From: a virus
Reading direction: 5' to 3' (one strand)
DNA: 64,000 bases
IMG/VR virus record: IMGVR_UViG_3300045988_168552
The notes below the pieces were generated by a model. The model saw nothing but the letters and a program-made list of their open reading frames with translations. It was not told where the DNA came from and made no database searches. Both the position numbers and the translations under genes were made by a program. Of this stretch, positions 15,234 through 62,850 are shown in pieces. The stretch's first letter is position 1. The number at the start of each line of letters is the position of its first letter.

Positions 15234-15707
15234 ATGGCAAGACAAGCACAGAACGGCTTCTCAAAGTTTGATATTACCAAGTCGAAGGCGATGAGGAATA
15301 TTGAAGATATTTACGACTCAGAGTCATCGGCAGCAGAGGAGCCGGAAAAGACTGAGACCCAGACAGTGGATTTGGAATCAACAGAAGAGAATGCTCCGGC
15401 AGCAAAGCAGGAGCCAGCAGAAGAGACACCAGCCGAGAAAAAACCCGCCGAGGAGATAGCCCCCGTTCCCAGCGATTCTATCGCTGGTCCCTCATCATCT
15501 CTCAATAGCGGAATGCCATCTGGCATGAAGCCTTTGAAGGCAGAGAAGGGTGTAAAGATCTCCCTCCCTATGGAGTATTACTTCAAGCTCGTGCAGATAA
15601 AAGTCTGCACGGGCAAGAGCCTTCAGGACTTGGCAGCGCAGGGCGTGATGGAGTTTATCGATCGTTTCAGCCAACCAGACAGTCAGGTAAACGAAAAGTC
15701 AGATTGA
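15234..15707 (+). CDS. Small centromere-binding protein candidate (ParG-like, disordered N-terminus plus RHH-like C-terminus)
   Basis: Lies immediately downstream of parA. PAEE-rich low-complexity N-half. The C-terminus KISLPMEYYFKLVQIKVCTGKSLQDLAAQGVMEFIDRF fits a strand-helix-helix pattern. Start set at the ATG at 15234 rather than the GTG at 15207. Confidence 0.5.
   Translation: MARQAQNGFSKFDITKSKAMRNIEDIYDSESSAAEEPEKTETQTVDLESTEENAPAAKQEPAEETPAEKKPAEEIAPVPSDSIAGPSSSLNSGMPSGMKPLKAEKGVKISLPMEYYFKLVQIKVCTGKSLQDLAAQGVMEFIDRFSQPDSQVNEKSD
15459..15490 (+). repeat. Dispersed hairpin element, copy 1 (inside a CDS, read as APVPSDSIAGP)
   Basis: GCCCCCGTTCCCAGCGATTCTATCGCTGGTCC. Stem CCAGCGA/TCGCTGG, loop TTCTA. 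Confidence 0.9.
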
Positions 15708-15761
15708 GGTAAAATCTTACTAAAGTCTTTTACCTCGATGAGGTACCGAAATAATACCGAA

Positions 15762-15779
15762 GGGTATAGTTTTCGGTAC
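15762..15779 (+). repeat. Iteron (isolated copy)
   Basis: GGGTATAGTTTTCGGTAC. Confidence 0.8.
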
Positions 15780-15964
15780 CAACTCACTACATTTATGGCT
15801 AAGTTTATGTCGTAAAACGTTGATTTATAGCTATTTATGTGCTACGAAATACGTTACACCAATATAATCTTCACTATACCAAAAGGTTAAATAACTGATT
15901 TCCTGATGGTTACGATGAAAACTTAGCCATTTATGTAGTGACTTTCGTACCAAAAGGTACAAAA

Positions 15965-15983
15965 GGGTTATAGTTTTTGGTAC
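15965..15983 (+). repeat. Iteron (isolated, 1-nt longer variant)
   Basis: GGGTTATAGTTTTTGGTAC. Confidence 0.7.
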
Positions 15984-16066
15984 GAACAAGTCACAACATC
16001 TGTGGCCAAGTTTGAGGTAAAATCCTACTAAAGTATTTTACCTTCTTACTAAATCCTTTTACCGAA

Positions 16067-16128
16067 GGGTATAGTTTTCGGTACGTAAGGGTATAGTTTT
16101 CGGTACGTAAGGGTATAGTTCTTGGTAC
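16067..16128 (+). repeat. Three tandem iterons with 22-bp phasing (16067, 16089, 16111)
   Basis: GGGTATAGTT(T/C)T(C/T)GGTAC repeated with GTAA spacers. Confidence 0.9.
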
Positions 16129-16147
16129 GAACTTTCCAAAATCGGAA

Positions 16148-16209
16148 AGGTATAGTTTTCGGTACGTAAGGGTATAGTTTTCGGTACCAAAAGGTATAGT
16201 TCTTGGAAC
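16148..16209 (+). repeat. Three tandem iterons with 22-bp phasing (16148, 16170, 16192)
   Basis: (A/G)GGTATAGTT(T/C)T(C/T)GG(T/A)AC repeated. Confidence 0.9.
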
Positions 16210-16335
16210 CTCGTTTTTCCGAAACCCCTAGTGTTTATCGGCATTTCGGGCGATTTTTAAGTCTCTATACTAATACTGATACTATTTATTATATCTGTAT
16301 ATATAAAAATGAATGAAAATATATAAGTAATAGTT

Positions 16336-17619
16336 ATGGGCGCAAATGAAAACAAGCGAATAAATGAAAACCAGGTTACTTTCCGTGATTTGGAAAAGCA
16401 GCCGACAGAGCAGCAGCTTTGTAATTTGCGGTGGATCAAGACTCCGTGCTCTTACGCTTCACTGGGCAGCACTTTTTCGCTTTTGCAGCAGGATATTATG
16501 CTCCAGGTAAGTGTAAAGCTACAGGAGTACATCAATCAGTACTACGACCAGATGCGCTATAAGGAGAAGACTTATCCTAAGTCTCCATTCCTATCTGAGG
16601 CGCAGAAGAGGGAAGCCCTTCATATTCGCATCGATATGTCCGAGCTCGTAGATAATCATAGCAACTACAAGGAGATGTTTCAGGAGTATGCCGATGGTAA
16701 GGTGCCTATCGTGGAAGAGATAGGCGCTCTGAGGGTGTTCGTGAAGAAAGATAAGCTATCAGACTTCTACCCTGTATTCGACCGCATATCGCTGCCTAAG
16801 AAAACGTGGGTAAGCAAGGATGGCACCATCAGAGATGTTTATTCGGGTGTTGTTGAACTCTACATCAATCATTTTGTGGCTGATTACGCTTTCGACCTGA
16901 GCAAGGGATATGTGCCGCACATGGCGCGTGTAGCGAAGACCAGCAAGCGAAGAGTTACACCGAGGGTTTACCTTTGGCTGATGGAAAACAAGGACCGCCC
17001 ACGCAAAAGGGGGCAGGGCAATCCCTTATCGATTACGGTAGAGAAGCTGAAGGATTTCCTGGGCTGCTATGAGATAGACCCGGAAACGAAGGAAAAGGTT
17101 TATCAGTATGCCAAGTATTCAAAGTTCAAGAAGGATGTTCTGGATAAGGCAAAAGCTGACCTGGTGGCGCAGGCAAAGAAAAACGATATAGATATTACTT
17201 TTGATTATACGGAACATTATCCGGAAGGCAGAAAGCGAGGCAATCCCGATTATATCACCTTTGAGGTGTTCTATACGCCGCTCGGCAAACTCCATAAAGC
17301 AGGAAAGTATTCTGAGGGTGAGCTATTCGATGCGAAGGCATTCGATGTAGCGAAGAGCGTGCAGCCTGCTTCTTCCAAGATAGAGACGAAGGTAGGCGAG
17401 GGCAGCGACAAGTGGAAGGCATTCTGCAAGCTCTTTATAGGCGATGCTGAGAAATCACTGATTTCCCGCATTTCCTTCGTCGGCATGAAGAACGGAAGGT
17501 TTTGTGTGGAGTGCAGCGATGATGATTTCGATATGATCAGAAATCTTGGTATTGAAGACAAGGCAAAGGAGTTCTTCGATTGCAAAGGGTCTTTCGCTCC
17601 GGTGTTCTACCGCGGATAA
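16336..17619 (+). CDS. Putative iteron-binding replication initiator (Rep)
   Basis: 427-aa ORF 127 nt downstream of the iteron field. The call is mainly positional. The N-terminal region is loosely Rep_3-like. Confidence 0.55.
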   Translation: MGANENKRINENQVTFRDLEKQPTEQQLCNLRWIKTPCSYASLGSTFSLLQQDIMLQVSVKLQEYINQYYDQMRYKEKTYPKSPFLSEAQKREALHIRIDMSELVDNHSNYKEMFQEYADGKVPIVEEIGALRVFVKKDKLSDFYPVFDRISLPKKTWVSKDGTIRDVYSGVVELYINHFVADYAFDLSKGYVPHMARVAKTSKRRVTPRVYLWLMENKDRPRKRGQGNPLSITVEKLKDFLGCYEIDPETKEKVYQYAKYSKFKKDVLDKAKADLVAQAKKNDIDITFDYTEHYPEGRKRGNPDYITFEVFYTPLGKLHKAGKYSEGELFDAKAFDVAKSVQPASSKIETKVGEGSDKWKAFCKLFIGDAEKSLISRISFVGMKNGRFCVECSDDDFDMIRNLGIEDKAKEFFDCKGSFAPVFYRG

Positions 17620-17625
17620 AAGTAA

Positions 17626-17665
17626 AAAGGTAAAAAGGTTAAATCTCCTTTTTACCTTTTTTTTG
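17626..17665 (+). terminator. Rho-independent terminator (13-bp perfect stem plus T-run)
   Basis: AAAGGTAAAAAGG-ttaaatct-CCTTTTTACCTTT followed by TTTTTT, immediately after the rep stop. Confidence 0.8.
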
Positions 17666-18654: not shown

Positions 18655-18734
18655 GCGGATTTCAAATCCGCAAGGAAATATGTCGAGCCTTTTTAGACGG
18701 CGGATTTCAAATCCGCCGGAACGCCTAGCGGGCT
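18655..18734 (+). repeat. Second dispersed repeat family: two GCGGATTTCAAATCCGC hairpins (18655-18671, 18700-18716), the second followed by CGGAACGCCTAGCGGGC
   Basis: Matches 58785-58815. The 3' half also matches 48061-48085 in inverted orientation. Confidence 0.8.
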
Positions 18735-19542: not shown

Positions 19543-20238
19543 TCACTCACCTTCCCGATGATGAACGTCTTCCGCCACCATCCTAAATCCCCCTTGCTGG
19601 GCATTCAGTCGATGAGTCAGCTCATTGATAAGCTTCTGCTGATCGCCTATCTGCTTCTGCTGTTCGGCGATAATATCGAGCATGCGGTTAAGGGTAGCCA
19701 TACTGATGTCCGGATCAGCATTTGGAACTGGCTCCGCAATCGGAGTAGGGGCAGTCTCATTCATAGGCGCAGGGGCAGCCTCTCTTTTGTACTCTCCCTT
19801 TTGCTTGTGCCCCTTTGCGCCCCCGTTCCCAGCGATTCCATCGCTGGTCCACCCCGGTACCACCGATTTCACTCTCTCCACATCGAGCGGATTGCGCAGC
19901 GCACGCGTACCCAGTTTGCGCTTCTCATCATTATCTATATATCCGCCATCCGGTTCAAACTGGTCATCTATGCCAGGGCATACATACCCCTCTTCGCAGC
20001 AGCCTCCCTTCTCCTGAAGGTCCTTATCCGCATCTACAATAAAAGCCGAGAGCGGAACGTGGAACGCATTGCAGAAGCGCAGCAGGGCGATGGTAGGCAG
20101 TGGCGACTTCTTTCTTATCCAGCTATCCAGGCACGCATTACTCGTGGTACCCATAGCCTTCATAATTTGCTTATTGGTGATTTTTCTGTTTGCTTCCATC
20201 CACTTGTCGAGGAAGCTGTAGTTATAAAAGTACTTCAT
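19543..20238 (-). CDS. HTH (Cro/CI-like) transcriptional regulator, repressor candidate
   Basis: The N-terminus ITNKQIMKAMGTTSNACLDSWIRKKSPLPTIALLRFCNAFHVPLSAF fits an XRE-type helix-turn-helix. Gly/acidic linker and C-terminal coiled coil (LDIIAEQQKQIGDQQKLINELTHRL). Transcribed divergently from the neighbouring genes. Confidence 0.65.
   Translation of the reverse strand: MKYFYNYSFLDKWMEANRKITNKQIMKAMGTTSNACLDSWIRKKSPLPTIALLRFCNAFHVPLSAFIVDADKDLQEKGGCCEEGYVCPGIDDQFEPDGGYIDNDEKRKLGTRALRNPLDVERVKSVVPGWTSDGIAGNGGAKGHKQKGEYKREAAPAPMNETAPTPIAEPVPNADPDISMATLNRMLDIIAEQQKQIGDQQKLINELTHRLNAQQGGFRMVAEDVHHREGE
19819..19850 (+). repeat. Dispersed hairpin element, copy 2 (antisense inside the HTH gene linker, read there as DGIAGNGGA)
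   Basis: GCCCCCGTTCCCAGCGATTCCATCGCTGGTCC. Confidence 0.9.
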
Positions 20239-20351: not shown

Positions 20352-20384
20352 TTTGGTAGTTATGGTTTTATTTCCTAAATTTGC
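20352..20384 (+). promoter_or_regulatory. Rightward Bacteroidota-type promoter (-33 TTTG 20352-20355, -7 TAAATTTG 20377-20384)
   Basis: Consensus match with 21-nt spacing, 26 nt upstream of the ATG at 20410. Confidence 0.6.
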
Positions 20385-20386: not shown

Positions 20387-20417
20387 CAAAATTAAGAAAT
20401 AAAATTGAGATGACAAA
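20387..20417 (-). promoter_or_regulatory. Leftward Bacteroidota-type promoter (-7 TAATTTTG = CAAAATTA 20387-20394, -33 = CAAA 20414-20417)
   Basis: Reverse-complement consensus with 19-nt spacing. It is back to back with the rightward -7 box, forming the near-palindrome TAAATTTG-CAC-CAAAATTA. Confidence 0.55.
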
Positions 20418-20901: not shown

Positions 20902-20918
20902 GCTGTCATATCCCCCTC

Positions 20919-20949
20919 GCTCCCGTTCCCAGCGATTCCATCGCTGGTC
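20919..20949 (+). repeat. Dispersed hairpin element, copy 3 (intergenic, 26 nt before the ATG at 20975)
   Basis: GCTCCCGTTCCCAGCGATTCCATCGCTGGTC. Confidence 0.9.
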
Positions 20950-22061: not shown

Positions 22062-22560
22062 AAACGTGAAGATATGAAGAAATAAAAGATATTCTGCATG
22101 ACATCATGCAAACTTCGGTACGATACACTCGATCCGACTTTATTTTATTAGACAACCGAGCCATCGGTTAAATGGCAGGAAGAACTGGACGGGTAATGAG
22201 TGAACGCTGCAAAGCTTCACTGATAAGTTGATACCCTCCACCGTAACCTCGGAACGATAAGTGAAAAGTCTGATTAAAAAGCTTGGGAAATACTTATCGA
22301 TGCGGTAAAAAGGCATCCTCGAAATTTGGCGGCATTACCCCGAAGGTTCTTCTTTCTTTGAAACATTGATATAAAGAGAATAGGGGAGGCATTCTGGAAA
22401 CGCTCTTATGCAAGGGTAGTGGGAGTCAGTAATGCCCTACGACTACGTATGCTGCATCTTTGCCGCGGGCGAGTACCACAGATTTTCAAATGCTCCGACC
22501 GCTCGCTTTGGAATATAACCTGGCAAGGTGTAAACACTTGAAGTTTGGCCTACCCTTTGC
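22062..22560 (+). other. ORF-poor, hairpin-rich spacer upstream of the primase (structured RNA or lytic-origin candidate)
   Basis: No plus-strand ORF of 60 aa or more. Perfect short inverted repeats at 22096-22109 (GCATGA/TCATGC) and 22154-22169 (AACCGA/TCGGTT). Long-range complement GGCATTAC 22331-22338 / GTAATGCC 22429-22436. Confidence 0.35.
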
Positions 22561-22590
22561 GCCTCCGTTCCCAGCGATTCTATCGCTGGT
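22561..22590 (+). repeat. Dispersed hairpin element, copy 4 (65 nt before the primase ATG)
   Basis: GCCTCCGTTCCCAGCGATTCTATCGCTGGT. Shares the extended 5' flank CCCTTTGCGCC with copy 2. Confidence 0.9.
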
Positions 22591-22654
22591 TAATAGCCGA
22601 AGAGTGGTGCCTTCCCTGTCTCTTTTAACTCTATAAATACTCTTACTGTAAGAT

Positions 22655-25600
22655 ATGTTATTCCACCCGATATTGAACCAGATTGCCAACCTTGACATGG
22701 CATTCCTCGTAAAGCCAGCCGATGAGCAGCGCATCGAGGGACAGACTGCCTGTTTCTGTCCGCTCTGCCAGAAGGAAGAGGCAGACGATGGCGAGCAGGG
22801 CAAGGCAAAACAGACACCACACCTCATTATATACAATAATGAGCGTGGCGGTATGTATAACGGCGTAGGGGTGGATAATAATACCAAGGCAGAGCACGGT
22901 GCCCTGCGCTGGATGTGTACCAAGACCGGTAAATACGGCTACGGTGCGATCGAGCTTTATGCTGCCATGCGCAAGCTGCCGATGCACGGAGCCAGTCTGC
23001 TGCGTCTTTGCCACGACCTCGTAGTGAGGGTATGTGGCGACAACGAGAAGACGAAAGCCAAATGGCCTGCGCTCTTTGCCAAGATGGACTATCGGACAAT
23101 CGCTCCACAAACGATAGAGACATTCTCTTTTATGCCCAAAACTGATTTCAACCCCCAGGAGCTTGCAGCCCTGGGGTGCGAAGTCACATCAGTAAAAGGC
23201 ATCCCTCAGTACGGCTTCGGAAAGGACTTCAATACAAGAATGCTGAATGAAGATTTCCGTATCTATGCCGTGGACCAGGTGACGCTGCCAAACGTAGTGA
23301 GAAACGGACAACTGGTGAGTGAAGTGATTTACGGCACTCCCTGGAACCCGCTGTTCGTCTGCTTCGCTACAGACGTAATAGCGCCGCAGGGAAGCTGCGG
23401 ATGCTTCTTCCGTCCAGCCATGCAGCAAGACCCGATAGTCTTCTCCACCAGCGAGGACCACAGCGTGAGAAAAGTGAGCAAGTGGCTGATGGGCGATAAG
23501 GTTTTTACCTATGCGATGGATCATCGGAGTAACAACTCTACTGCCGTTCACTCGGCTATAGAAAAGTTGCAACCGGGAGAACCTTATACAGAGACTAAGG
23601 AAATTTGGGTAGAGAATGAAACGAAAGAAGGAGCGCCGAAAGGTACTTACCATAGCGAAGAAGAACCTATAGAAGTAGGCGACATCAAGGCTCAGAACAT
23701 CGTTTTCTGTCGAACACCAGAAGACGCATTGAGTATCTATTACGCCATGCGTTCCCTGCGTCAGGATAAGGCGCAGGATAAACATTTTCAGAAATACTGC
23801 TGGTACCACGTAGCTTTCTCGTTAGGCAGAAGAAACTTCTGGTATATCGAGCGTGGGCAGTGGAGGCAGGAAAAGTTAGACTTCAATGCCCTGCAGTATC
23901 AGAAAATGAAGCGATTTGCCGAGAGGGTTATTATGATTTACCCTAACGACATCGCCAGCCAGAGGGATTGCGGAGCCATCGCAACCAAGTATTGCGATAT
24001 TTGTTATGCCACATTACCCGATGGATTCAGAAGTAGATATAATCAAAGGTGGAACTGGTTGTATGGCTGTTCTCCACGAAGCGTGAGAGATTATCTGATG
24101 TGTTACCACATGGATGATGCCGACAACTTCAAGTTCGACCACGATATAAGGTTGCCGTTATATTCGCGGTTGCGGGGTGCCAACAATACGGACCCATTTG
24201 AGATAGAATATCCCCGAGACCCGAGAAGCGGCAAGCCTAAACCGCCTACCTGCAAGGTATCGCCTACAAAGGTTTGGCTCTTTATGACTTGCCATGGCTA
24301 TTACAGAATGGTAGATCCAGAGAGTACCGACCTCGTAGGTCAGTATATCCACCTGGATAGATGTTTCGTAGAATACATCGACCAGAAGAGTATCATCCAG
24401 GCAACAAAAAACCAACTTCTGCAGTTTACCGAACAGAGTTGGCGGCATAATAACCAGGAGCGCAAGATGATGTCAGATTGCGCCAACCTGATAGACAAGA
24501 ATTTCAGTGAGAAATCGGCTGGAGGCTTGCAAAGTATGGTGATAGACTTCACCGAGAGCTTCGATGCCCATACGGAATATTTCTTTTTCCGAAATGTAGC
24601 GTTGAAAATCACTCCCGAAACTATCATGCCAGTCAGCTACGAGAAGTTGAATTTCTTCATCCCAGCCCTGGCAAAGAAACCGTATGATTTCACGATGAGG
24701 GTTTTCAATCCTCCTTTTGTTATCAGCGAAAGCCAGGAATATAAGGATAAAGTGGCTGCCATTGCCCAAGAGGAAGCGCAGGTTAATGAGGATGGCTCAC
24801 CAGTCTTTACGAGAGCCGAAATCGACCAGAAGAAGAAAGACTTGGATGAATGGTCTCATACCTATCAGTGGTACGTAGATTGGCAAGGTAAGCAGGAGAA
24901 AGAACTTTGGGCACCGCTCCGTGTTATCAGAGGCTGTTCCAACGTATTGTGGCGAAGAGAACGTGATGCGATTCGTAACAAGGAACCTCTTACCAAAGAA
25001 GAACAGGCTATCATTGATTCTCATTTTGCCAACATGATTTCCTGCATCGGAAGAGTGTGCTATCGTTCTTGGGCAGATATGACAACTATATGCCCATATC
25101 TTCTGGAAGATGAAGTGAAGGATGAGAAACAGGCAAGTGGTGGTACGGGAAAATCCATGATGATTAATATCCTCGTCAACTCGGCCGTAAATGTACTGCA
25201 TATAGACCTGAAGAAATACAAGACAGAAGACAAAGCGCAGTTTGCGCTTACTGATATTCTGAAGTATCCTGGAAAATATAGGGTAGTGCATTGGGAGGAT
25301 AAACCATCTAATTTCTCGGTGGAATACTTCTATAATATAGTCACATCAGGTTCGCAGGTTGAACGGAAGTTCGGAGATCCAATATCACTGAATCTGGATA
25401 ACTCTCCTATCAATGTCATATCAAGTAACTCACAGCTGAATAATGCGGCAGGTTCTACCGCCAGACGTTTTCCGCTGGTATCGTTTTCTGATAGATTTGC
25501 AGGAGCCAATCCGATGCTGCATGAGTTGGAACGTTCACCTAAAGACTTAATGAAAAGTCTTGCAGATTCTCCCGAGAAGATAGCTGAGCGAGACCGCAAT

Positions 25601-26335
25601 CAAATCATTTACATCTGCGCTCTTGCCGTCCAGTTCATCATGCGCTATCATACCTTTGCTATCGCCCCTCAGAAGAACGTTCAGCGAAGATTGATGGTAA
25701 GGGAAATGACCGAAAATTCGGTGAACTACTTTGAGTGGTTCTTCAGTCGCAATGATGTCTATGGAGTACCTATCTGCGCAGACGACATGTTTAGTGAGTT
25801 TATGCGAGATTGGTCTGATGCCAGCGAGGGCAAGAGCAAGGAATATAGCCGAGCTACCTTCAAGAAGAAAATCAGGAAGTATTGCGAACACATGGGTATT
25901 ACCTGCAATCCTGATAATCTCTTGGTAGGTGAGGACAACAAGCGCCATGGCTGCTTCAAACTCCGTGCCTGGGTAACGGAGGAATACTTCGTAGGCAGAG
26001 AGTGGGAGAATGATGATAGCGTCGAGCCGAAACTCATCCGCAGGGTAAAGACGAGCAAGCACGTCTATTTCTTCTTCCGTAGCGGCAAGGATCATATTCC
26101 TGAAAGCTACGACGAGTTAAAGCGGATAGCGAAGGAATATGTAGAAGGTCCCGACCCATTACCGTACCGTGATGACGATGGCAACATCGTCTCCCTCACC
26201 TCAGAAGAGGAAGAACGCTGGAAGGCATTCACCTCCCGCAAGCAGGGCAGAAGGCAAGCGATACCTAACGGCAGCAATAGCAGCAATGCAGCAGCTACGG
26301 TAGGCGAAATAGATAAGAGCGACTTGCCGTTCTAG
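22655..26335 (+). CDS. Primase-helicase fusion (Zn-finger and toprim-like N-terminal part plus P-loop D5/P4-type SF3 helicase part)
   Basis: CPLCQ...WMCTKTGKYGYGAIELYAAM (primase-type zinc-binding region). NIVFCRTPEDAL and IMIYPNDIAS (toprim-like E and DxD). Walker A SGGTGKSMMIN with HWED downstream. 1226 aa. Confidence 0.8.
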   Translation: MLFHPILNQIANLDMAFLVKPADEQRIEGQTACFCPLCQKEEADDGEQGKAKQTPHLIIYNNERGGMYNGVGVDNNTKAEHGALRWMCTKTGKYGYGAIELYAAMRKLPMHGASLLRLCHDLVVRVCGDNEKTKAKWPALFAKMDYRTIAPQTIETFSFMPKTDFNPQELAALGCEVTSVKGIPQYGFGKDFNTRMLNEDFRIYAVDQVTLPNVVRNGQLVSEVIYGTPWNPLFVCFATDVIAPQGSCGCFFRPAMQQDPIVFSTSEDHSVRKVSKWLMGDKVFTYAMDHRSNNSTAVHSAIEKLQPGEPYTETKEIWVENETKEGAPKGTYHSEEEPIEVGDIKAQNIVFCRTPEDALSIYYAMRSLRQDKAQDKHFQKYCWYHVAFSLGRRNFWYIERGQWRQEKLDFNALQYQKMKRFAERVIMIYPNDIASQRDCGAIATKYCDICYATLPDGFRSRYNQRWNWLYGCSPRSVRDYLMCYHMDDADNFKFDHDIRLPLYSRLRGANNTDPFEIEYPRDPRSGKPKPPTCKVSPTKVWLFMTCHGYYRMVDPESTDLVGQYIHLDRCFVEYIDQKSIIQATKNQLLQFTEQSWRHNNQERKMMSDCANLIDKNFSEKSAGGLQSMVIDFTESFDAHTEYFFFRNVALKITPETIMPVSYEKLNFFIPALAKKPYDFTMRVFNPPFVISESQEYKDKVAAIAQEEAQVNEDGSPVFTRAEIDQKKKDLDEWSHTYQWYVDWQGKQEKELWAPLRVIRGCSNVLWRRERDAIRNKEPLTKEEQAIIDSHFANMISCIGRVCYRSWADMTTICPYLLEDEVKDEKQASGGTGKSMMINILVNSAVNVLHIDLKKYKTEDKAQFALTDILKYPGKYRVVHWEDKPSNFSVEYFYNIVTSGSQVERKFGDPISLNLDNSPINVISSNSQLNNAAGSTARRFPLVSFSDRFAGANPMLHELERSPKDLMKSLADSPEKIAERDRNQIIYICALAVQFIMRYHTFAIAPQKNVQRRLMVREMTENSVNYFEWFFSRNDVYGVPICADDMFSEFMRDWSDASEGKSKEYSRATFKKKIRKYCEHMGITCNPDNLLVGEDNKRHGCFKLRAWVTEEYFVGREWENDDSVEPKLIRRVKTSKHVYFFFRSGKDHIPESYDELKRIAKEYVEGPDPLPYRDDDGNIVSLTSEEEERWKAFTSRKQGRRQAIPNGSNSSNAAATVGEIDKSDLPF

Positions 26336-26338
26336 TCA

Positions 26339-26365
26339 CCGTTCCCGGCGATTCTATCGCTGGTC
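26339..26365 (+). repeat. Dispersed hairpin element, copy 5 (23 nt before the ATG at 26388)
   Basis: CCGTTCCCGGCGATTCTATCGCTGGTC. The stem CCGGCGA/TCGCTGG has one G.U pair in plus-sense RNA. Confidence 0.85.
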
Positions 26366-30169: not shown

Positions 30170-30655
30170 ATGAGAACATTAGAACAATTTCAGAAAGAAG
30201 TCCTTGCGCCGTTGCGTAAGGAGAGAGACGACAAGCATGCAGCAGCTTTGAAAATCAAGACCGATGGGGGGGCTGCCTTTGCGAAGCGTAAGAAGGAACT
30301 CGTGGAGAAAGAAGGGGAGTTCAAGGAGCATCAGAAATCCTGCCTGAAAGAGTTTCTGAGCAAGCAGACCTTGGAAAAGAAATCTTTCTTCGTCCTGCAG
30401 GATGCCGAGCGTGCCGATGCTCACGCTCAGTATCAGAAAGCTACCCAAGACTACAAGATTGCTAAACGCCGTGCCAACGAGGAATATATGGATAAGTTAG
30501 CCATAGCCTTTGCTGAGTACAACAAGGAGCGAGTAGCCGCAGGTGAGCAGCCTGTATATTACGACAACCGCCGTGAGATGTCAGCCGAAGAACATAATTC
30601 GTGCCATCAGGAGGATGGCTGGCCAGCAGACCCGGCACAAGAGGTTGAAGCATGA
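30170..30655 (+). CDS. Hypothetical charged/helical protein
   Basis: 161-aa K/E-rich ORF. Confidence 0.55.
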   Translation: MRTLEQFQKEVLAPLRKERDDKHAAALKIKTDGGAAFAKRKKELVEKEGEFKEHQKSCLKEFLSKQTLEKKSFFVLQDAERADAHAQYQKATQDYKIAKRRANEEYMDKLAIAFAEYNKERVAAGEQPVYYDNRREMSAEEHNSCHQEDGWPADPAQEVEA

Positions 30656-30689
30656 GTTTCAGAAATACAAAATAAACAATAATAAAAAC

Positions 30690-31763
30690 ATGAACACGAA
30701 ACAACAGAATATTCTCCGCTCATTACTCAAGAAGTATAAATACAAGAGCGTGAGCAACGTGGTTCGCCAGGCACTCGGAATCAACTTCGAGAACTTCCTA
30801 CAGAAGGCTGAACCTCTCTATATTCTCCCCCGCATCGCCTCCTGCTATGCCGACGAGAAAGACAAGAAGGATCTGAATGGCATTATCTACAAGGAATGGC
30901 TCAAAGACGTGGTAGAAAAAGAATGGGTAGCCCCTCTCAATACCTATATCGAGGAGCACGGAGACCGCATCGTTCTCTCTGCCATCTACTATCTCATAGA
31001 CAATGGTCTATGGGAAACCTACGAAGGTCGCCTCTCCCTGGGTTCCCAGGATGAAGCCTATTATGATAAGCTCTCCGATATGCCTTCCGCCATCGCTATG
31101 GTGCAGGAGCAGCAAGCCGAGGATAAGGCAGCCGAAAAAGCAGCCGAGGAAGCAGCAAAGAAGGAAGCCCAGCATTCAGCCGAGGAGAGTGCCCCCGTTC
31201 CCAGCGATTCCATCGCTGGTCAACCCCCCGGCTATACCCTAACCGCCGAAGAAGCCGCAGCCCTCATCGCCACCACCTCCGATACCTGCTCCCAGCTAAA
31301 GCAGAACATCGAGCGCCTGTTTGATTTCATTCACACCGCCACCGATACCGATGCCTTGCGCCAGAAGCTCGCCACACTTCAGCATCAGCTAGAAGATCAG
31401 AAATCTCAGCATCAGAAAGAAGTCACCACCCTGCAGCAGAAAATCGATGATGCCTATACTACGGCGAATAAAGCCAGCGATTACATCTCTAAGCTGAAGC
31501 AGGAAGCCAAGGAAACCCAGAAGCAGTACGATGAGCTGAATGCCAAATACAAGAAAGCCCTGGATGAGCGTGATGATGCCGACAAGGAGTTGGAAACTTG
31601 CAAGAAGCTCCTCGAAGAAGAAGCCAACCGTGAGCAGCTTCCTAAGAAGAAGGTTATCCCATATAGTGTGCTCGATGCCGTTCCACTTCTGGGCAAAGGC
31701 GTAATGACTGGTCTAGAACCCGTCCTCGCCAAATACAACATCATCATCGACCACAACAAGTAG
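30690..31763 (+). CDS. Hypothetical protein with C-terminal coiled coil
   Basis: Start set at the ATG at 30690 (MNTKQQN), after the stop of the previous gene. The linker AAEKAAEEAAKKEAQHSAEESAPVPSDSIAG contains repeat copy 6. Long coiled coil QKLATLQHQLEDQKSQHQKE... Confidence 0.6.
   Translation: MNTKQQNILRSLLKKYKYKSVSNVVRQALGINFENFLQKAEPLYILPRIASCYADEKDKKDLNGIIYKEWLKDVVEKEWVAPLNTYIEEHGDRIVLSAIYYLIDNGLWETYEGRLSLGSQDEAYYDKLSDMPSAIAMVQEQQAEDKAAEKAAEEAAKKEAQHSAEESAPVPSDSIAGQPPGYTLTAEEAAALIATTSDTCSQLKQNIERLFDFIHTATDTDALRQKLATLQHQLEDQKSQHQKEVTTLQQKIDDAYTTANKASDYISKLKQEAKETQKQYDELNAKYKKALDERDDADKELETCKKLLEEEANREQLPKKKVIPYSVLDAVPLLGKGVMTGLEPVLAKYNIIIDHNK
31191..31221 (+). repeat. Dispersed hairpin element, copy 6 (inside a CDS, same frame as copy 1: APVPSDSIAGQ)
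   Basis: GCCCCCGTTCCCAGCGATTCCATCGCTGGTC. Shares the upstream GCCGAGGAGA with copy 1. Confidence 0.9.
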
Positions 31764-32755: not shown

Positions 32756-33304
32756 ATGGATAATAAAATGAATATGTTAAAAGAAACGCTAGGTGAGGAC
32801 GGTTTAGACCGTCTGGCTGGTTTATCTGATAAGTGCTTTTTCATTAAAAAGGAAGACATCGAAAAAACGTTTGGTCGGAATTTGATTAATGACGGAAGTA
32901 TTTTGGTAGGTGACAAGTCTCATTTTATTCCGGTTGATCTTACCAGTGATACGACAATCCAGGCAGAAGAACCAAGAAGAAGTTTCCGGTGTTCTTTCAC
33001 TATAGTAGATAAGCAGGAAGAACGTTATAATGCTCAGATGTTGGTAGTCTGCGTACTGCCGGTATTCGGTAAGTCGCTGTTTCCTGTAACTCCCCCTCAC
33101 CTTCCATTTCGATTGGCTGATGGCTACACAACGCTGTATCGCAACCGTCATAACTTCTTTTATGCGGCAATGAGAAATCTCTTCTCTCATTCCTTATCTG
33201 AGAAATCTGAAGAAGAGCAGTTGTTTGAAAGGCTAGAAACAGCGCAAGAGTTTGGCAATTATGAATATAACCCCCTGCTGACCAGCGATTCCATCGTTGG
33301 TTAG
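32756..33304 (+). CDS. Hypothetical protein
   Basis: 182-aa ORF. The C-terminal codons (TSDSIVG) are encoded by repeat copy 7. Confidence 0.55.
   Translation: MDNKMNMLKETLGEDGLDRLAGLSDKCFFIKKEDIEKTFGRNLINDGSILVGDKSHFIPVDLTSDTTIQAEEPRRSFRCSFTIVDKQEERYNAQMLVVCVLPVFGKSLFPVTPPHLPFRLADGYTTLYRNRHNFFYAAMRNLFSHSLSEKSEEEQLFERLETAQEFGNYEYNPLLTSDSIVG
33281..33301 (+). repeat. Dispersed hairpin element, copy 7 (hairpin part only; 3' end of a CDS, 30 nt before the ATG at 33331)
   Basis: ACCAGCGATTCCATCGTTGGT. The stem CCAGCGA/TCGTTGG has one G.U pair in plus-sense RNA. Confidence 0.8.
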
Positions 33305-35006: not shown

Positions 35007-35477
35007 ATGAAAGAAGAAGATTATATTAAGTCATATCCTTATGATACCTACACCGAGCGTGTAGATGCGGATAAGCTGGCAGAAGGTAGAATATACCTTA
35101 TTGAAACGCCGAGAGCTGAGACAAGATTTCTGAGAGCGTATGTTTGCGTAAAGCAGGTTCTTCCTTCTGATGGTGGTATTGTATTGCATTTTGGTATTTA
35201 TATTGAGCGAGCAGGAATGACGGTTCATATTTCTGACCCTCACGCAAAGAATTACCAAAGCGTTGCGTCTTCACGTTGCGCCAATGCTATATATAAAGAT
35301 ATAGGTTTAATGCGATATGATGATTATAATTTCTATATTCCTAGTCAAGATCAGGTAAAGGATGTCCTAGACAACCTTCGCAGTTTGGGCTATATGTTTA
35401 TAGATGATGAAATGAGAAAGATCGACATCGCACCTCTATTTCCGGCGGTTCCATTTTGTATAAAGAATAAAGAATAA
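35007..35477 (+). CDS. Hypothetical protein; C-terminal module shared with 41582..42163
   Basis: EGRIYLIE..YVCVKQ..LHFGIY..FYIPSQDQVKDVLDNLRSLGYMFIDDEMRKI compares with EDRIYLLR..FICVKY..LHFSW..IYHPSLAQVQMLESKLREIGYEFSNGKMQKL. Confidence 0.55.
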   Translation: MKEEDYIKSYPYDTYTERVDADKLAEGRIYLIETPRAETRFLRAYVCVKQVLPSDGGIVLHFGIYIERAGMTVHISDPHAKNYQSVASSRCANAIYKDIGLMRYDDYNFYIPSQDQVKDVLDNLRSLGYMFIDDEMRKIDIAPLFPAVPFCIKNKE

Positions 35478-35896: not shown

Positions 35897-36159
35897 CGTT
35901 AGAGTTATCGATGGAGGAAAAGGTAATCGTAACCGTTCTTTGGGTGTTTACGATATTCTTTATGATGTTTCTTTCCGGAATGTTTGAAGGCAGTCGCGAG
36001 TCAATAAGGGCATCAAATATTCCGCCACCACTACCACCATCGCCCTCTCACTCCCGTTCCCTGCGATTCCATCGCAGACCAAAAATAAAGAGTAATAACA
36101 AAAATAAAAACAAAAAAGATTATGGCAGAAATAACAAAACAACAGAATGTAGAGAATGA
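35893..36159 (+). CDS. Small membrane protein (C-terminal part doubtful)
   Basis: Hydrophobic N-terminus VIVTVLWVFTIFFMMFLSGMF. The frame then runs through repeat copy 8 and A-rich spacer sequence. Confidence 0.35.
   Translation: MTLELSMEEKVIVTVLWVFTIFFMMFLSGMFEGSRESIRASNIPPPLPPSPSHSRSLRFHRRPKIKSNNKNKNKKDYGRNNKTTECRE
36051..36080 (+). repeat. Dispersed hairpin element, copy 8 (42 nt before the ATG at 36122)
   Basis: CTCCCGTTCCCTGCGATTCCATCGCAGACC. The stem CTGCGA/TCGCAG has one A-T pair swapped to T-A relative to consensus. Confidence 0.85.
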
Positions 36160-36427
36160 ATCAGAAGAAGAGGAGTGCGGCAAGCAGATTTTTCAGCTCA
36201 ACCTTTCCTACTATGAGATGAAGGACGACAAGTTCACCGTCAAGGTAACTTGCGAGAAGGATGGCAAGGAGTCTGACCTGAAAATCCTCACCGATGATAA
36301 TTCTATCGGTATGGTGTATGAGGGAATGAAAATCGTCCTTGGTACCGTGGCTCGCTTCTACCTGATGAGCCTTTTGGATAAAGGCGCAATCACCCAGGAG
36401 GAGTACGATAAAATGACGGGTAATTAA
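36122..36427 (+). CDS. Hypothetical acidic protein
   Basis: 101-aa ORF. Its N-terminus MAEITKQQNVENESEEEE is duplicated at 38127. Confidence 0.5.
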   Translation: MAEITKQQNVENESEEEECGKQIFQLNLSYYEMKDDKFTVKVTCEKDGKESDLKILTDDNSIGMVYEGMKIVLGTVARFYLMSLLDKGAITQEEYDKMTGN

Positions 36428-36444
36428 TCGGAAATGATAGATAT

Positions 36445-36612
36445 ATGAAGCAAGAAGAAAAAAGCTCTATTAAGTCTTCATTACCCTGCAAGTCTCAGGA
36501 GTCAGCAGAGGAGTATGATAGTAATGATGTTCCTCTCATTTCTCCTCCGTTGACTCCAAGAGTATTATTGCTACAAATGATACATGTTTTTATAAAGACA
36601 AAAAAGAAATAG
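36445..36612 (+). CDS. 55-aa peptide (not in the ORF track)
   Basis: Ends in a TAGCGTATG junction. The C-terminal 33 aa are duplicated at 38178-38276. Confidence 0.35.
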   Translation: MKQEEKSSIKSSLPCKSQESAEEYDSNDVPLISPPLTPRVLLLQMIHVFIKTKKK

Positions 36613-36615
36613 CGT

Positions 36616-37164
36616 ATGTTGTACGAAGCAAAGAAAGGAACAAAGACTTATGAATACATAAACAGTATTCTTGAAGCCGAATTTGAAGAGTACAAAGCTT
36701 ATATGAAGCGAGTACACGAAGCCGTAGATTTCGAGTTTCAGAAGTACAAAGGTTATCAGCCGAACGGCAGCTTGTTGCGAGAGCACGAGATAATCGCAAT
36801 CTGGGTACCAGCCGAGCAGTATGATACGATGGATAAGAAGCTATGGCGAAAGGTAGATAGCACCACAATCAAGAACGTTCTCCACGTAGCGGTAATGCCT
36901 AACAAGCGTTACAAGTGGGGCAAAAGAGTGGATGCCATCCTTTCCTCTTACAAACCAGTAACAAATCACTGGAAGTTGTTAAAGGCATTGAATGTAAAAG
37001 AGCCTGCATCCAGCAGTTTCTCCATTACTCAGCTCCTCAGTCATAAAGACCGTATCTTTGCCTTCTTTGACGATAGCATCCGAGCCGAGAAGTGCAATCC
37101 TGATTTCAAGGAAATCACGATAGGAGAGTATGAGGATCTTATAAATAGTGATAAAGAAGGGTAG
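36616..37164 (+). CDS. Hypothetical protein, paralog A of 38280..38822
   Basis: MLYEAKKGTKTYEYINSILEAEFEEYKAYMKRV... aligns along its full length with MLYEAKQETKAYEYIKGILDAEFKEHQAYMKRV... Confidence 0.65.
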   Translation: MLYEAKKGTKTYEYINSILEAEFEEYKAYMKRVHEAVDFEFQKYKGYQPNGSLLREHEIIAIWVPAEQYDTMDKKLWRKVDSTTIKNVLHVAVMPNKRYKWGKRVDAILSSYKPVTNHWKLLKALNVKEPASSSFSITQLLSHKDRIFAFFDDSIRAEKCNPDFKEITIGEYEDLINSDKEG

Positions 37165-38040: not shown

Positions 38041-38053
38041 ACGTTGCCCTCTC

Positions 38054-38084
38054 GCCCCCGTTCCCAGCGATTCCATCGCAGGTC
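38054..38084 (+). repeat. Dispersed hairpin element, copy 9 (43 nt before the ATG at 38127)
   Basis: GCCCCCGTTCCCAGCGATTCCATCGCAGGTC. One A.A mismatch in the stem. Confidence 0.85.
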
Positions 38085-38126
38085 AAAAGTAAAGAGTAAT
38101 AACGAAAATAAAAACAAAAAAAGATT

Positions 38127-38276
38127 ATGGCAGAAAAAACAATGTTACAGAATGTAGAGAATGAATCAGAAGAGGAGTATGATTGTAATGATGTTCCTCT
38201 CATTTCTCCTCCGTTGATTCCAAGAGTATTATTGCTAAAAATGATACATGTTTTTATAAAGACAAAAAAGAAATAG
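38127..38276 (+). CDS. 49-aa fusion peptide (N-terminus of the 36122 ORF type joined to the C-terminus of the 36445 ORF type)
   Basis: MAEKTMLQNVENESEEEYDCNDVPLISPPLIPRVLLLKMIHVFIKTKKK. Ends in a TAGCGTATG junction. Confidence 0.35.
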   Translation: MAEKTMLQNVENESEEEYDCNDVPLISPPLIPRVLLLKMIHVFIKTKKK

Positions 38277-38279
38277 CGT

Positions 38280-52517: not shown

Positions 52518-52525
52518 CCCATCTC

Positions 52526-52550
52526 GCCCCCGTTCCTGGCGATTCCATTC
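52526..52550 (+). repeat. Dispersed hairpin element, copy 10 (3' arm degenerate; 40 nt before the tape-measure ATG)
   Basis: GCCCCCGTTCCTGGCGATTCCATTC. Confidence 0.7.
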
Positions 52551-52589
52551 TCATATCCTCAAAAAATAAACATTAAAAAATAAAAAGCA

Positions 52590-58784: not shown

Positions 58785-58815
58785 GCGGATTTCAAATCCG
58801 CAGGAACGCCTAACG
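58785..58815 (+). repeat. Second dispersed repeat family, full copy
   Basis: GCGGATTTCAAATCCGCAGGAACGCCTAACGG. Confidence 0.8.
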
Positions 58816-59613: not shown

Positions 59614-59647
59614 CAGCAGATTTTATATAATATAATATATGTAAGGT

Positions 59648-60724: not shown

Positions 60725-60755
60725 TAAGAAAAGTTTTTTAAATACGTATAAGATT

Positions 60756-61040
60756 ATGGCAAAGAGAAATGTAAAAATCCCGAAGGGGTCATGGCTCGAC
60801 CAGAAAGGTCAGCGATGGATGAAAGTAATATTCGATGTAATGTCCGGTTTCGGGGGGTGTGAAAAGTTCATCCGTCAGATCAATTTGGACTTCACCTGCA
60901 ACTTCGATTTCGGACTGAAAAGATATGTAGTTAATATGGATGATTATGGTAATCTGCGAAACGTTGTGTTGCAGAAATACCCATCGCTGGCGAGGTATGG
61001 AGCCTTCCGACTGGTGATGACAACTCATCAAGTAAAATGA
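60756..61040 (+). CDS. Hypothetical protein
   Basis: 94-aa ORF. Confidence 0.5.
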   Translation: MAKRNVKIPKGSWLDQKGQRWMKVIFDVMSGFGGCEKFIRQINLDFTCNFDFGLKRYVVNMDDYGNLRNVVLQKYPSLARYGAFRLVMTTHQVK

Positions 61041-61047
61041 TAAGATT

Positions 61048-61581
61048 ATGAAATTGATAACGATTATTGGTCCCTCTGGGGCTGGCAAGGATACGGTAGC
61101 GCTCATGTTGTCTGCCATCCTGGGATATGAAGTGCTTTGTTCCTATACCACCAGACCTATGCGTGAAGGTGAAGTGGACGGCAAGGAGCATCATTTTGTC
61201 AAGGAATGCAACGTTCCCAAAAGCGAAATGCTTGCTTATACCCGATACGGCAACTATGAGTATTGGACGGAGAAGAAACAGATAAATGGTGCTGCCATTT
61301 ATGTCATCGACGAGAAAGGACTGATGGAGCTGATGGAGCGCTGCCCGAAGGCTAAGATCATCACCGTCTATGTTTCGGCAAAGCCGGAAACTTTGAAGAA
61401 GCGCGGTATCTCTGAGGAACGTACCGACAGAGACCAGTATCGTGTTCAGATTGATTTCAACAGCTATGACTATGTGATACCCAACAACCGCTCGATATTC
61501 CATCTTTGGGATTTCGTGGCGTTCGTAGCCAAGAAAATAAGAGAGCAGGAATTGGGCATTCCTAACCATGCTGTAAAGTAA
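61048..61581 (+). CDS. Guanylate-kinase-like nucleoside/deoxynucleoside monophosphate kinase
   Basis: P-loop IIGPSGAGKDT and the signature SYTTRPMREGEVDGKEHHFV. Confidence 0.8.
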   Translation: MKLITIIGPSGAGKDTVALMLSAILGYEVLCSYTTRPMREGEVDGKEHHFVKECNVPKSEMLAYTRYGNYEYWTEKKQINGAAIYVIDEKGLMELMERCPKAKIITVYVSAKPETLKKRGISEERTDRDQYRVQIDFNSYDYVIPNNRSIFHLWDFVAFVAKKIREQELGIPNHAVK

Positions 61582-61674
61582 GTTCAAAGTGAATATCCAG
61601 TACCGTTACAATACAGACTGAGTACAGACTGAGCATAGATAGAATAATATATAAACATCAAATAAAGAAACAAT

Positions 61675-62562
61675 ATGAAAATGATAATTCCTGGTGTTGA
61701 GTGGTGGCCTCAGAAGACCGCCGCTCAACAGATTGCTCGAGTAGGCAGAGTTTGCTACAAGAGCAAAGGTAAGCAGCCTGACGAGAATCTTCCTGAAGAC
61801 AAGAAAGAAGATTTTCTGGAGAAACAGGCAGTGCAGTTGGCCAACCGATTCTGGGAGAGCGGCCACCGCTCCATGTACCGACATGGTACCCTTTACTTCT
61901 TCGTGAAGAACGATAGTAGGCTGCCAAAACACCTCTGGTCTTTCCTCGTTGCATCACCTTACATCAATTATGCAGTGCAGGAAAAGAAGGTATGGATCAG
62001 CAGCAATATGCAGTTCCTTTGCGAGCACGGCAATATATTCGAAATGCTATCCCCATTCAATGTGAAGGAAGCCGAGTTTATCGAAAAGGCGCAGAAATAT
62101 GATTGCAAGGAAGCACTCAATCTCCTCCGAATGACGCTGGTGGTGACTACGCAGATCAGCACCAGCCGTGAGTTGAACCGCACATCACCTAATAGCATCA
62201 GTGAGCAGAGTACACGCTATGTGAACCTTGAGAAGAAAGGTGGCGTGCAGATTGCCCGTCCCCATTGGTTGCACGAGGGCACCCGCTGGCAGAAGTTCCT
62301 CTATCTCACCGGCTGCAAGATTGCCGACTGGCTCTATCGTCGATTGCTGAAATCGGGCATGAAGCCACAGGATGCAAGAGGCATTCTTCCTCTTGATACC
62401 TATACGGTAGTAGCTTACACCTACACCATCACCGAGTGGCAGCATATCCTCGACCTCCGCTTCAGAGAAACCACCGGCAAGGCGCATCCTAATGCCAAAG
62501 AGGTAGCCTTCGAGATCAACCGCATCATTGATGAAAGAATGGAGGCATTTAATAACAAATAA
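61675..62562 (+). CDS. thyX: ThyX-like (flavin-dependent thymidylate synthase family) protein with a deviant RHR motif
   Basis: GHRSMYRHGTLYFFV, SRELNRTSPNSISEQSTRYV (aligns by eye to aRq..RHR..S...lS.RY) and ARGILPLDTYT...EWQHILDLR resemble ThyX blocks. Confidence 0.6.
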   Translation: MKMIIPGVEWWPQKTAAQQIARVGRVCYKSKGKQPDENLPEDKKEDFLEKQAVQLANRFWESGHRSMYRHGTLYFFVKNDSRLPKHLWSFLVASPYINYAVQEKKVWISSNMQFLCEHGNIFEMLSPFNVKEAEFIEKAQKYDCKEALNLLRMTLVVTTQISTSRELNRTSPNSISEQSTRYVNLEKKGGVQIARPHWLHEGTRWQKFLYLTGCKIADWLYRRLLKSGMKPQDARGILPLDTYTVVAYTYTITEWQHILDLRFRETTGKAHPNAKEVAFEINRIIDERMEAFNNK

Positions 62563-62581
62563 AAAAGTAAGCAATCAGTCT

Positions 62582-62734
62582 ATGCCACGTCGCATTCATA
62601 AAGATTGCCCTTTTACAGCCGAAGAGATAGACGAGTTTCACGCTATGCTCTATAACGTGAACACGTCTTTCCCGTGCATCAATCCCGCACCCGTATCATG
62701 GCTGAAAGGCTTTCAGAATTATAGCAGTAAATAA
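62582..62734 (+). CDS. 50-aa peptide
   Basis: Start set at the ATG at 62582 (MPRRIHKDCPF), after the thyX-like stop. Confidence 0.35.
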   Translation: MPRRIHKDCPFTAEEIDEFHAMLYNVNTSFPCINPAPVSWLKGFQNYSSK

Positions 62735-62820
62735 TCGCCGTTAAGGGAGATTATGATTAATAGAGCCTCTTATGCCTCTTTTTTATGACGGTTTCCAAAA
62801 TTGCAACTGTCATAAATGGA

Positions 62821-62850
62821 GCCTCCGTTCCCAGCGATTCCGTCGCTGGT
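62821..62850 (+). repeat. Dispersed hairpin element, copy 11 (36 nt before the ATG at 62886)
   Basis: GCCTCCGTTCCCAGCGATTCCGTCGCTGGT. Confidence 0.9.

Follow-up and report, generated by a model that had tools for sequence, protein, structure and literature searches.

The element described here is a short hairpin repeat that occurs 11 times, always on the plus strand, in a 64,000-nucleotide stretch of viral DNA (IMG/VR record IMGVR_UViG_3300045988_168552; the whole stretch is called the window below). With about even confidence, we explain it as a miniature mobile palindrome, similar to the repetitive extragenic palindromic (REP) sequences and the Rickettsia palindromic elements (RPEs), that is common to the chromosomes of Segatella (Prevotella) copri and to a family of ~100-kb phages. 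The unit is ~42 nt long and consists of a C-rich 5' flank, (CCCYTTGC)GCCCCCGTTCC, then the hairpin CCAGCGAT-TC(C/T)-ATCGCTGG and a TC(C) tail. The conserved stretch runs from ~13 nt upstream of CCGTTCC through the TC(C) after the stem, with the 5'-most ~9 nt (CCCYTTGC/CCCTCTC) more weakly conserved than the core. A sequence-only reading of the window had drawn a 7-bp stem with a 5-nt loop. The hairpin stands, but it folds better with an 8-bp stem, CCAGCGAT/ATCGCTGG, and a TC(C/T) triloop (~-12 kcal/mol; z-scores of -2.4 to -3.2 for most intact window copies), and it forms part of a longer unit.

The copies are far more numerous than chance would supply. With up to two mismatches allowed, the stem pattern CAGCGA-N5-TCGCTGG has 20 matches in the window versus 1.25 in shuffled sequence (the palindrome being counted on both strands), and ~1 copy is expected by chance versus the 11 observed. 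A 32-nt position weight matrix (PWM) built from the copies finds exactly 11 sites in the window, all on the plus strand, and no other site above 8 bits on either strand; covariance model R1 agrees. Stem pattern, PWM, and covariance model thus place all 11 copies where the sequence-only reading had put them. That reading had also proposed scanning beyond the window with such models, and both relatives of the phage and host contigs prove to carry the element.

In a scan of one genome per bacterial species, an exact 23-mer of the element was found in 118 stretches of genome contigs, nearly all of them from S. copri or Prevotella. These host copies score 45–58 bits with the covariance model, equal to the phage copies, and thus include the 5' flank. 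The S. copri chromosome NZ_CP152484.1 carries seven dispersed loci, at 0.33, 1.13, 1.82, 1.94, 2.17, 2.74, and 3.85 Mb (copy positions 335016, 1131037, 1824321/383, 1831004, 1943633, 2169434, 2737280/396, and 3855263). Host copies are found between trpD and trpC in the trp operon, beside a phosphotransferase system (PTS) IIC gene, between convergent histidine kinase and glycosyltransferase genes, and next to genes for a TonB-dependent receptor, a MATE transporter, Hsp15, a rhamnogalacturonidase, and a rhamnulokinase. Several species-level genomes have them in ordinary operons and 3' untranslated regions (UTRs), where no other DNA of phage origin adjoins them. Host copies occur in both orientations. 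Some are paired as inverted doublets, which either bracket real terminators or make up long palindromes (inverted pairs at host loci L120, L127, L159, L166, L173, L178, L179, L191, and L197). The presence of the same element between host housekeeping genes shows that it is no phage-specific control site, and the scatter of the 30-mer in both orientations across host chromosomes is the pattern that the sequence-only reading had itself named as speaking against such a role. The case carries a more general caution: a conserved, co-oriented, intergenic motif in a phage need not be a phage regulatory network, and a scan of host genomes quickly decides.

To class host placement, we compared the strand of each copy with those of the genes before and after it. 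The raw counts are 70 co-directional sense, 21 convergent, 8 antisense, and 1 divergent; per independent host site (~25–30 sites), they are 13, 4, 4, and 0, respectively. In the host, then, the element lies downstream of co-oriented genes, and divergent promoter regions are avoided.

Among viral sequences, IMG/VR contigs of 56–110 kb contain an exact 25-mer in no fewer than 118 stretches, and the covariance model recovers ~190 copies in 80 of these loci. Clustering by flanks reduces them to ~45 independent phage sites. The density is ~1 copy per 5–6 kb, and all phage copies are singlets, with no doublets in the phage loci. The copies of a given locus all lie on one strand, except that the palindromic stem gives a few weak echoes on the opposite strand.

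Comparison of orthologous phage sites shows an element that is mobile, with units gained and lost. A 66-nt insertion in locus L029 is missing from five relatives, and the element is present in L103 and L029 at a site whose orthologs in L033, L018, and L047 are empty. At the site upstream of the primase gene (copy 4 in Table 1), L101 is filled, L102 is empty, L025 holds another palindrome, and L001 has a flipped loop; L101 also shows a partial tandem duplication of the hairpin. Between filled and empty sites, the neighboring genes are intact. The same picture emerges within coding sequence. For gene 30543..31763, 584 homologs were found and 13 aligned; 12 of the 13 keep (A/S)VPSDSIAG within an otherwise hypervariable linker, and the exception, P0015, lacks exactly 45 nt (15 residues) including the element, an in-frame empty allele. 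Intragenic copies on either strand read the palindrome AGC GAT nnn ATC GCT as the benign peptides PSDSIAG or TSDGIAG, and the in-frame set comprises 15207..15707, 30543..31763, 19543..20238 (minus strand), and the C terminus of 32756..33304. Outside short intergenic spacers, units are tolerated only in disordered protein linkers, and there in one reading frame. Of the roles that the sequence-only reading had offered, a miniature mobile element tolerated in linkers is the one borne out, by the presence/absence sites, the in-frame copies, the 45-nt empty allele, and the two host orientations.

In a few copies (L001 at ~9011–9053, loop TGGAA, and host locus L149:7888–7940), the loop is reverse-complemented with the asymmetric 5' flank unmoved. 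The hairpin has flipped in situ there, which is evidence of extrusion in DNA.

Over ~370 unique copies, 99% of stem cells are paired. There are eight perfectly compensated stem variants, at four stem positions, and some of these variants are found at several sites unrelated to one another (CAAGCGAT/ATCGCTTG at 4, CCTGCGAT/ATCGCAGG at 3, and CCAGCGTT/AACGCTGG at 2). Stem pairing is, by this measure, maintained by selection, and the recurring compensated variants look like the proliferating subfamilies of a mobile repeat. Sequence constraint is equally visible: among orthologs of gene 30543..31763, third codon positions differ by 35–48%, and element positions 0–24 are invariant except for the third loop base. 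What keeps the core constant is either purifying selection or continual copying. The window and the host loci gave no Rfam 15 match at gathering score, only chance-level ones (E > 1), and with no Rfam or ARAGORN match, a tRNA/tmRNA relic or known RNA family was rejected. The element sequence itself appears in no searchable paper.

Table 1. Copies of the hairpin element in the window
Copy	Coordinates	Strand	Sequence features	Context
1	15458..15489	+		In frame (APVPSDSIAG), linker of small ORF 15207..15707 downstream of parA
2	19818..19849	+		Antisense inside minus-strand gene 19543..20238, encoding TSDGIAGNGG there
3	20918..20949	+		Intercistronic; ends 26 nt before ATG 20975 (exonuclease gene); ~550 nt downstream of canonical promoter 20352–20383
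4	22560..22591	+		Ends 64 nt before ATG 22655 (1226-aa primase/helicase-like gene)
5	26334..26365	+	CCGGCGAT variant, G.U pair in plus sense	Starts at stop codon of 22655..26335; ends 23 nt before ATG 26388
6	31190..31221	+		In frame (APVPSDSIAG), low-complexity linker of 30543..31763
7	33271..33302	+	Divergent 5' flank, G.U pair	Ends 29 nt before ATG 33331; overlaps C terminus and stop codon of 32756..33304, same SDSI(V)G frame
Possible 12th, decayed relic	35425..35454	+	67% identity, 3' arm lost	41 nt before ATG 35495
8	36049..36080	+	Compensated A-T to T-A pair (CCTGCGAT/ATCGCAG)	Ends 42 nt before ATG 36122; first copy of a duplicated gene cassette
9	38053..38084	+	One stem mismatch	Ends 43 nt before ATG 38127; second copy of the cassette
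10	52525..52556	+	Decayed: 5' flank and 5' arm kept, 3' arm lost; 20 bits	Upstream of tape-measure gene at 52590
11	62820..62851	+	One substitution in loop-adjacent stem pair (U.G in plus sense)	Ends 35 nt before ATG 62886

Several features of this distribution had been seen in the sequence-only reading and hold. Eight copies lie just upstream of start codons, with measured ends 23–64 nt before the listed ATGs; two are in frame within low-complexity linkers, in open reading frames (ORFs) 15207..15707 and 30543..31763, the frame of the former being backed by its codon-position mismatch pattern; and one is antisense within 19543..20238, whose pattern of substitutions by codon position fits the minus-strand gene and not the plus-strand shadow ORF. 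The early block and the minus-strand packaging block are indeed free of the element (no copies by PWM or covariance model in 0–15 kb or 38.1–52.5 kb), and copies are concentrated in the replication module at 15–38 kb. Five of the 11–12 copies in the 64 kb are exact. The duplicated cassette (36042–37164 versus 38046–38822, ~2 kb apart) comprises the element, an A-rich leader, a small acidic ORF, and a 180-aa ORF. Its copies are 68–91% identical, and their elements differ by half a compensatory change, CCTGCGAT/ATCGCAG versus CCAGCGAT/ATCGCAGG.

The element does not start transcription, and it is not a promoter, a terminator, or an operator. Bacteroidota promoters (TTTG-N17-23-TAnnTTTG) have 9 matches in the window versus 2 expected, among others at 336, 8048, 13741, 14065, 20352(+), 20387(-), and 42012. 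None of these coincides with the element, which itself contains no box of the -33 TTTG or -7 TAnnTTTG type, and whose copies lie inside the operons so defined, not at their heads. The 5'-UTR hairpin of a middle-gene regulon that had been suggested earlier therefore survives only in part, the regulon being contradicted by these positions and a transcribed RNA hairpin staying plausible. For the host, transcription starts of S. copri HDD04 are available from differential RNA sequencing (dRNA-seq) (bioRxiv 10.1101/2024.04.05.588293, Table S1A; chromosome NZ_CP152484.1), and we checked their coordinates against trpD and the canonical -33/-7 boxes. The trp operon starts at 333688 and the next start is at 341621; between them, at 335016, lies the trpD|trpC copy, which is thus intercistronic and does not act as a promoter. 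This copy and four others, five of the seven in this chromosome, have no tabulated start, and at the sixth, a canonical promoter between element and gene accounts for the start at 1824471.

Other candidate identities were rejected as well. A promoter of canonical or phage type fails because promoters lie elsewhere, the host dRNA-seq is contrary, and neither a polymerase gene nor a credible sigma factor was found in the window ORFs or the family clusters. An intrinsic terminator fails because there is no T tract (only the copy at 20930 has a chance T-rich tail) and, in the host, a separate canonical terminator follows. A repressor operator fails because host housekeeping loci carry the element, the stem compensates, and copies lie away from promoters. 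A CRISPR-like solitary repeat does not fit host loci that show inverted pairs only and no direct arrays with spacer-sized gaps. As to a parS centromere or Rep iterons, separate clustered repeats occupy 13713–13970 and 16042–16212, and the dispersed host copies fit neither. Finally, replichore-dependent orientation in the host shows no pattern over the seven loci of one chromosome.

If the element is a REP-like mobile palindrome, it would be transcribed within polycistronic mRNAs, and any effect would be that of an intercistronic or 3'-UTR stem-loop, as for classical REPs: a barrier to 3' exonucleases, or a mark for mRNA punctuation or processing. The uniform plus orientation in the phage would follow because nearly all phage genes lie on the plus strand and the sense orientation is tolerated or selected.

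A number of observations weigh against this explanation, however. First, Pfam scans of the 79 window ORFs and 75 further conserved clusters of the phage family found no REP-associated tyrosine transposase (RAYT), IS200-type, or other transposase, so that a phage-encoded transposase had to be discarded as a source of mobility; the sole nuclease of mobile type is an HNH/NUMOD4 homing-type one. Second, no convincing target-site duplication distinguishes filled from empty sites. Third, the main form, with CCGTTCC, lacks the GTAG/CGTC tag; only some host copies read CCGTCCC, and in them the tag is 3 nt off the stem. Fourth, the sense orientation has exceptions: 4 of 21 co-directional host sites are antisense, and phage copy 2 is antisense to its gene yet in the genome-wide plus orientation. 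Fifth, single stem changes comprise 20 of G.U type versus 11 of C.A type, counts that are non-independent and do not establish which strand is the RNA. Sixth, the seventh HDD04 copy, an AAGCGAT-variant hairpin, is followed after 17 nt by a start at 1831048 that has no canonical -7/-33 box; this is a listed primary start, 7 nt before the Hsp15 start codon (L207 ~7004–7045, NZ_CP152484.1 ~1831004–1831045). Lastly, exact copies number ~1–9 per 4 Mb in the host (~0.25–2.3 per Mb) versus 78 per Mb in the window. The exact-copy density in phage is thus 30–300 times that of the host, and at least tenfold higher even allowing for diverged host copies. Because host copies are so few, the phage family, not the host, is the main habitat.

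We also hold tentatively, and judge rather unlikely as a whole, a narrower version of the explanation: a REP-like replicator at home in S. copri phage-plasmids rather than in the bacterial chromosome, kept there at 30–300 times the host density, in a single orientation, and under sequence-level purifying selection, whose flank and hairpin (as RNA or single-stranded DNA) would be read by a phage or host protein, punctuating or processing long operons, with the chromosomal copies as spill-over. Were it true, it would be the first virus-centered REP-type system, apparently one without a RAYT transposase.

A purely selfish repeat is another possibility to which we would give only a minor share of belief. 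Here, a non-autonomous hairpin would be spread or homogenized by copying or gene conversion, without any effect on expression, and its placement would simply mark harmless sites. Variable occupancy next to intact genes suits this idea, as do compensated-stem subfamilies at unrelated sites, which proliferation from a master copy predicts, the restriction of intragenic copies to disordered linkers in one benign frame, and the occurrence of relics that have lost an arm. But decayed copies are rare (~15/180 score <30 bits), the orthologous intragenic copy is invariant despite the synonymous divergence given above, and no mobilizing enzyme was found. The density in phage is also hard to square with selfishness, since phage genomes usually purge useless DNA.

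Somewhat more doubtful is a cis-acting signal of the phage or phage-plasmid, read by a phage protein as RNA or single-stranded DNA for processing, antitermination, or replication priming, in which case the chromosomal copies would again be spill-over. The excess of exact copies in phage speaks for such a signal, and so do the strictly uniform orientation at ~45 sites, including the copy in a minus-strand gene, and the clustering in the 15–38-kb replication module; the near-invariant 5' flank, stem, and two loop bases suggest sequence-specific recognition. Set against these are the host copies in ordinary operons and 3' UTRs without attached phage DNA, the dispensability of copies at orthologous phage sites, and the failure to identify a candidate RNA-binding protein, nuclease, or antiterminator for the element in the window or the family clusters.

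We regard as improbable a site acting at the DNA level, a cruciform or hairpin used by gyrase, a nucleoid protein, recombination, or lagging-strand processing, as in REP clusters of the bacterial interspersed mosaic element (BIME) type or the strong gyrase site of Mu. The near-perfect palindrome, the inverted doublets that make long palindromes in the host, and the loop flips all point to extrusion as a hairpin or cruciform in DNA, and the copy in the minus-strand gene keeps the orientation of the genome strand. In the host, however, orientation tracks the neighboring gene (in NZ_CP152484.1, +0.33, -1.13, +1.83, -1.94, +2.17, and +3.85 Mb), and a symmetric site needs neither an asymmetric conserved flank nor a fixed orientation.

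The operator or "stoperator" network of the sequence-only reading, bound by a phage repressor such as the product of 19543..20238(-), is very improbable. A 19-bp inverted repeat would suit a dimeric binding protein, co-oriented copies lie upstream of many genes, and the divergent promoter pair 20352(+)/20387(-) beside this gene resembles an immunity switch. Nevertheless, identical copies lie between dispersed host housekeeping genes, compensatory changes alter both half-sites and keep the pairing, and the elements are away from promoters. The gene product, moreover, which had been labeled a helix-turn-helix (HTH) regulator, has no Pfam or PDB match and no HTH or other DNA-binding domain detectable in those databases, so that the label is unsupported.

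Weakest of all, to the point of being scarcely credible, is a non-canonical promoter, whether of the hairpin type used by the N4 virion RNA polymerase or of a phage sigma factor or RNA polymerase type: the unit is promoter-sized (~42 nt), it often ends 20–45 nt before a start codon, and the variant Hsp15 copy has a start just downstream, but no RNA polymerase gene or credible sigma factor was found, six of the seven tabulated host copies have either no start or their own canonical promoter, divergent regions lack the element (0 of ~25 independent host sites), a terminator often follows it directly in the host, and some copies lie inside ORFs.

The REP-like explanation gains from comparison with known systems, although no analogy is exact. 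Classical REPs, as in E. coli and Pseudomonas, are abundant in the chromosome. The element resembles them, and the REP doublets forming hairpins known as REPINs, in being a short stem-loop flanked on one side by a conserved single-stranded tag, in occupying short spacers between unidirectional or convergent genes while avoiding divergent regions, in being transcribed in operons, and in showing inverted doublets in the host, some intragenic copies, and compensated stem subfamilies. It differs from them in its handful of host copies against ~1 per 5–6 kb in the phage family, in having no RAYT (Y1_Tnp) in the set of ORFs and clusters scanned, and in phage copies that are all singlets in one orientation. 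According to PMC3733652, REPs occupy the spaces between ORFs that are unidirectional or convergent, may also be found within genes, and make head-to-head dimers; the same source names RPE-4 and RPE-6 as CGTC repeats.

The in-frame copies recall a second system. They lengthen non-essential linkers by a short peptide, which reads PVPSDSIAG or, from the opposite strand, TSDGIAGNGG, and an empty allele exists. Ogata et al. in 2000 reportedly described RPEs as selfish palindromes inserted in frame in protein-coding genes of Rickettsia. RPEs are ~100–150 bp long; the present element is ~45 nt, mostly intergenic, and found in a phage and a free-living gut bacterium.

MITEs (miniature transposable elements with inverted repeats, roughly 50–500 bp long) shared by hosts and viruses offer a third parallel, in that the same repeat occurs in a bacterium and its phages, is denser in the virus, and can be used for host assignment. 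Tools for MITE detection are believed to need longer units, and the element is probably uncatalogued. The phage units, singlets of ~42–45 nt, differ from MITEs in lacking terminal inverted repeats and target-site duplications, whereas the host doublets (~100–150 bp) could qualify by length. MITEs common to hosts and phages have been described, with Prevotella phages prominent and the density higher in viruses (PMC11602168, NAR 2024); uniform orientation and in-frame copies were not reported there. Sharing of miniature repeats between host and phage is, then, already published, and the element is a further REP/RPE-like example with an unusual density in phage.

Two regulatory systems invite comparison as well. 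The stoperators of cluster A mycobacteriophages are 13–14-bp double-stranded repressor sites, phage-specific and without a hairpin. Like them, the element has many co-oriented, asymmetric copies genome-wide, in short spacers and within genes; what sets it apart is a covarying stem and its presence in host operons. The nut site of phage λ (boxA plus the boxB hairpin) occurs once per operon, at its head. With nut and the RNase III sites of T7, the element shares the form of a co-oriented intercistronic hairpin within long phage operons, a conserved single-stranded box followed by a short stem-loop. Its stem is too short for RNase III, however, and neither of the two other kinds of site is known to be shared with host chromosomes or polymorphic in its presence.

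REP-type repeats are little described in Bacteroidota, and this one is unusual in that its density in a phage-plasmid far exceeds that in the host, in its in-frame protein copies, and in its strong conservation. The shared element ties an uncultured ~100-kb gut phage family, absent from GenBank phage collections, to an S. copri host. It also provides a tractable case for asking how miniature palindromes pass between viruses and hosts and whether either benefits, and HDD04, a host strain with published dRNA-seq, carries seven element loci.

The window itself probably comes from a ~100-kb phage-plasmid of S. copri, judged by its gene content. It has the look of a phage-plasmid because a ParA and a Rep3-like initiator with iterons stand alongside a tape-measure gene (2031 aa). 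The phage genes also include one for a holin, and those for replication include a sliding clamp, the 1226-aa primase/helicase-like protein, ThyX, and an exonuclease; in addition, there are methyltransferases. Relatives additionally carry a P22-like portal and a GH108 lysin. No close relative of the window was found among GenBank phages, and annotated collections gave one unannotated uncultured phage match and no plasmid match. Neither an RNA polymerase nor an integrase was found in the window or the 75 other family clusters, and in place of a credible sigma factor, there is only a weak match to the Sigma-70 non-essential region (Sigma70_ner; E 9.6e-06) in one family cluster. The maintenance module (13713–13970, 14299–15707, 16042–16212, and 16336–17619) lies inside this tailed-phage genome. 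Clustered GTAC-rich repeats stand upstream of parA at 13713–13970, with a small ORF downstream of parA, and six or seven 22-nt iterons at 16042–16212 precede the Rep3-like gene, which is followed by a host-style GGTAAAAAG terminator. Back-to-back Bacteroidota-type promoters (20352–20383(+) and 20387–20417(-)) separate 19543..20238(-) from the plus-strand operon in an arrangement like a CI/Cro switch.

Several other repeats were noticed. Runs of GGTAAAA(A/G)G are common to S. copri intergenic regions and the phage (L126:4380–4600 and L163:5470–5560; window 17622–17665). With their complement CTTTTTACC, these units form long bidirectional terminator hairpins, and most chromosomal element copies sit just downstream of such runs. 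A second palindromic family, GCGGATTTCAAATCCGC, occurs in the window at 18655–18671, 18700–18716, and 58785–58801, in phage loci L006, L054, and L111, and in the S. copri locus L206. Its pair at 18.65–18.72 kb fills a site where L101, L016, L048, and L084 carry the CAGCGAT element, which suggests that different hairpin repeats are interchangeable at one site. A third palindrome of ~90 nt (TTAATAGTT...GCCTCGCTCGA...AACTATCAAC) replaces the element upstream of the primase gene at L025:1640–1725, and related sequence abuts S. copri element copies at L191 and L197.

In the early block (744–6764), a motif ATCAC-TATTATAGAAC-ATTTTAAAATTT-AGAA-TTATG is repeated upstream of no fewer than eight small genes and extends into their start codons, for example at 2083–2131, 2514–2562, 2844–2892, 3288–3335, 4200–4247, 4975–5022, 5685–5732, and 6717–6764. 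It does not fit the -33 TTTG/-7 TAnnTTTG consensus, and terminator-like hairpin repeats lie near it at 2415–2511 and 2745–2842. At the left edge of the window (1–165), a 42-nt tandem repeat (TGGCTGGATGATGTCTCCCAGGGGTGCGAGGCGGTGCGGTGG) is present in 3.9 copies of 95% identity and may be coding.

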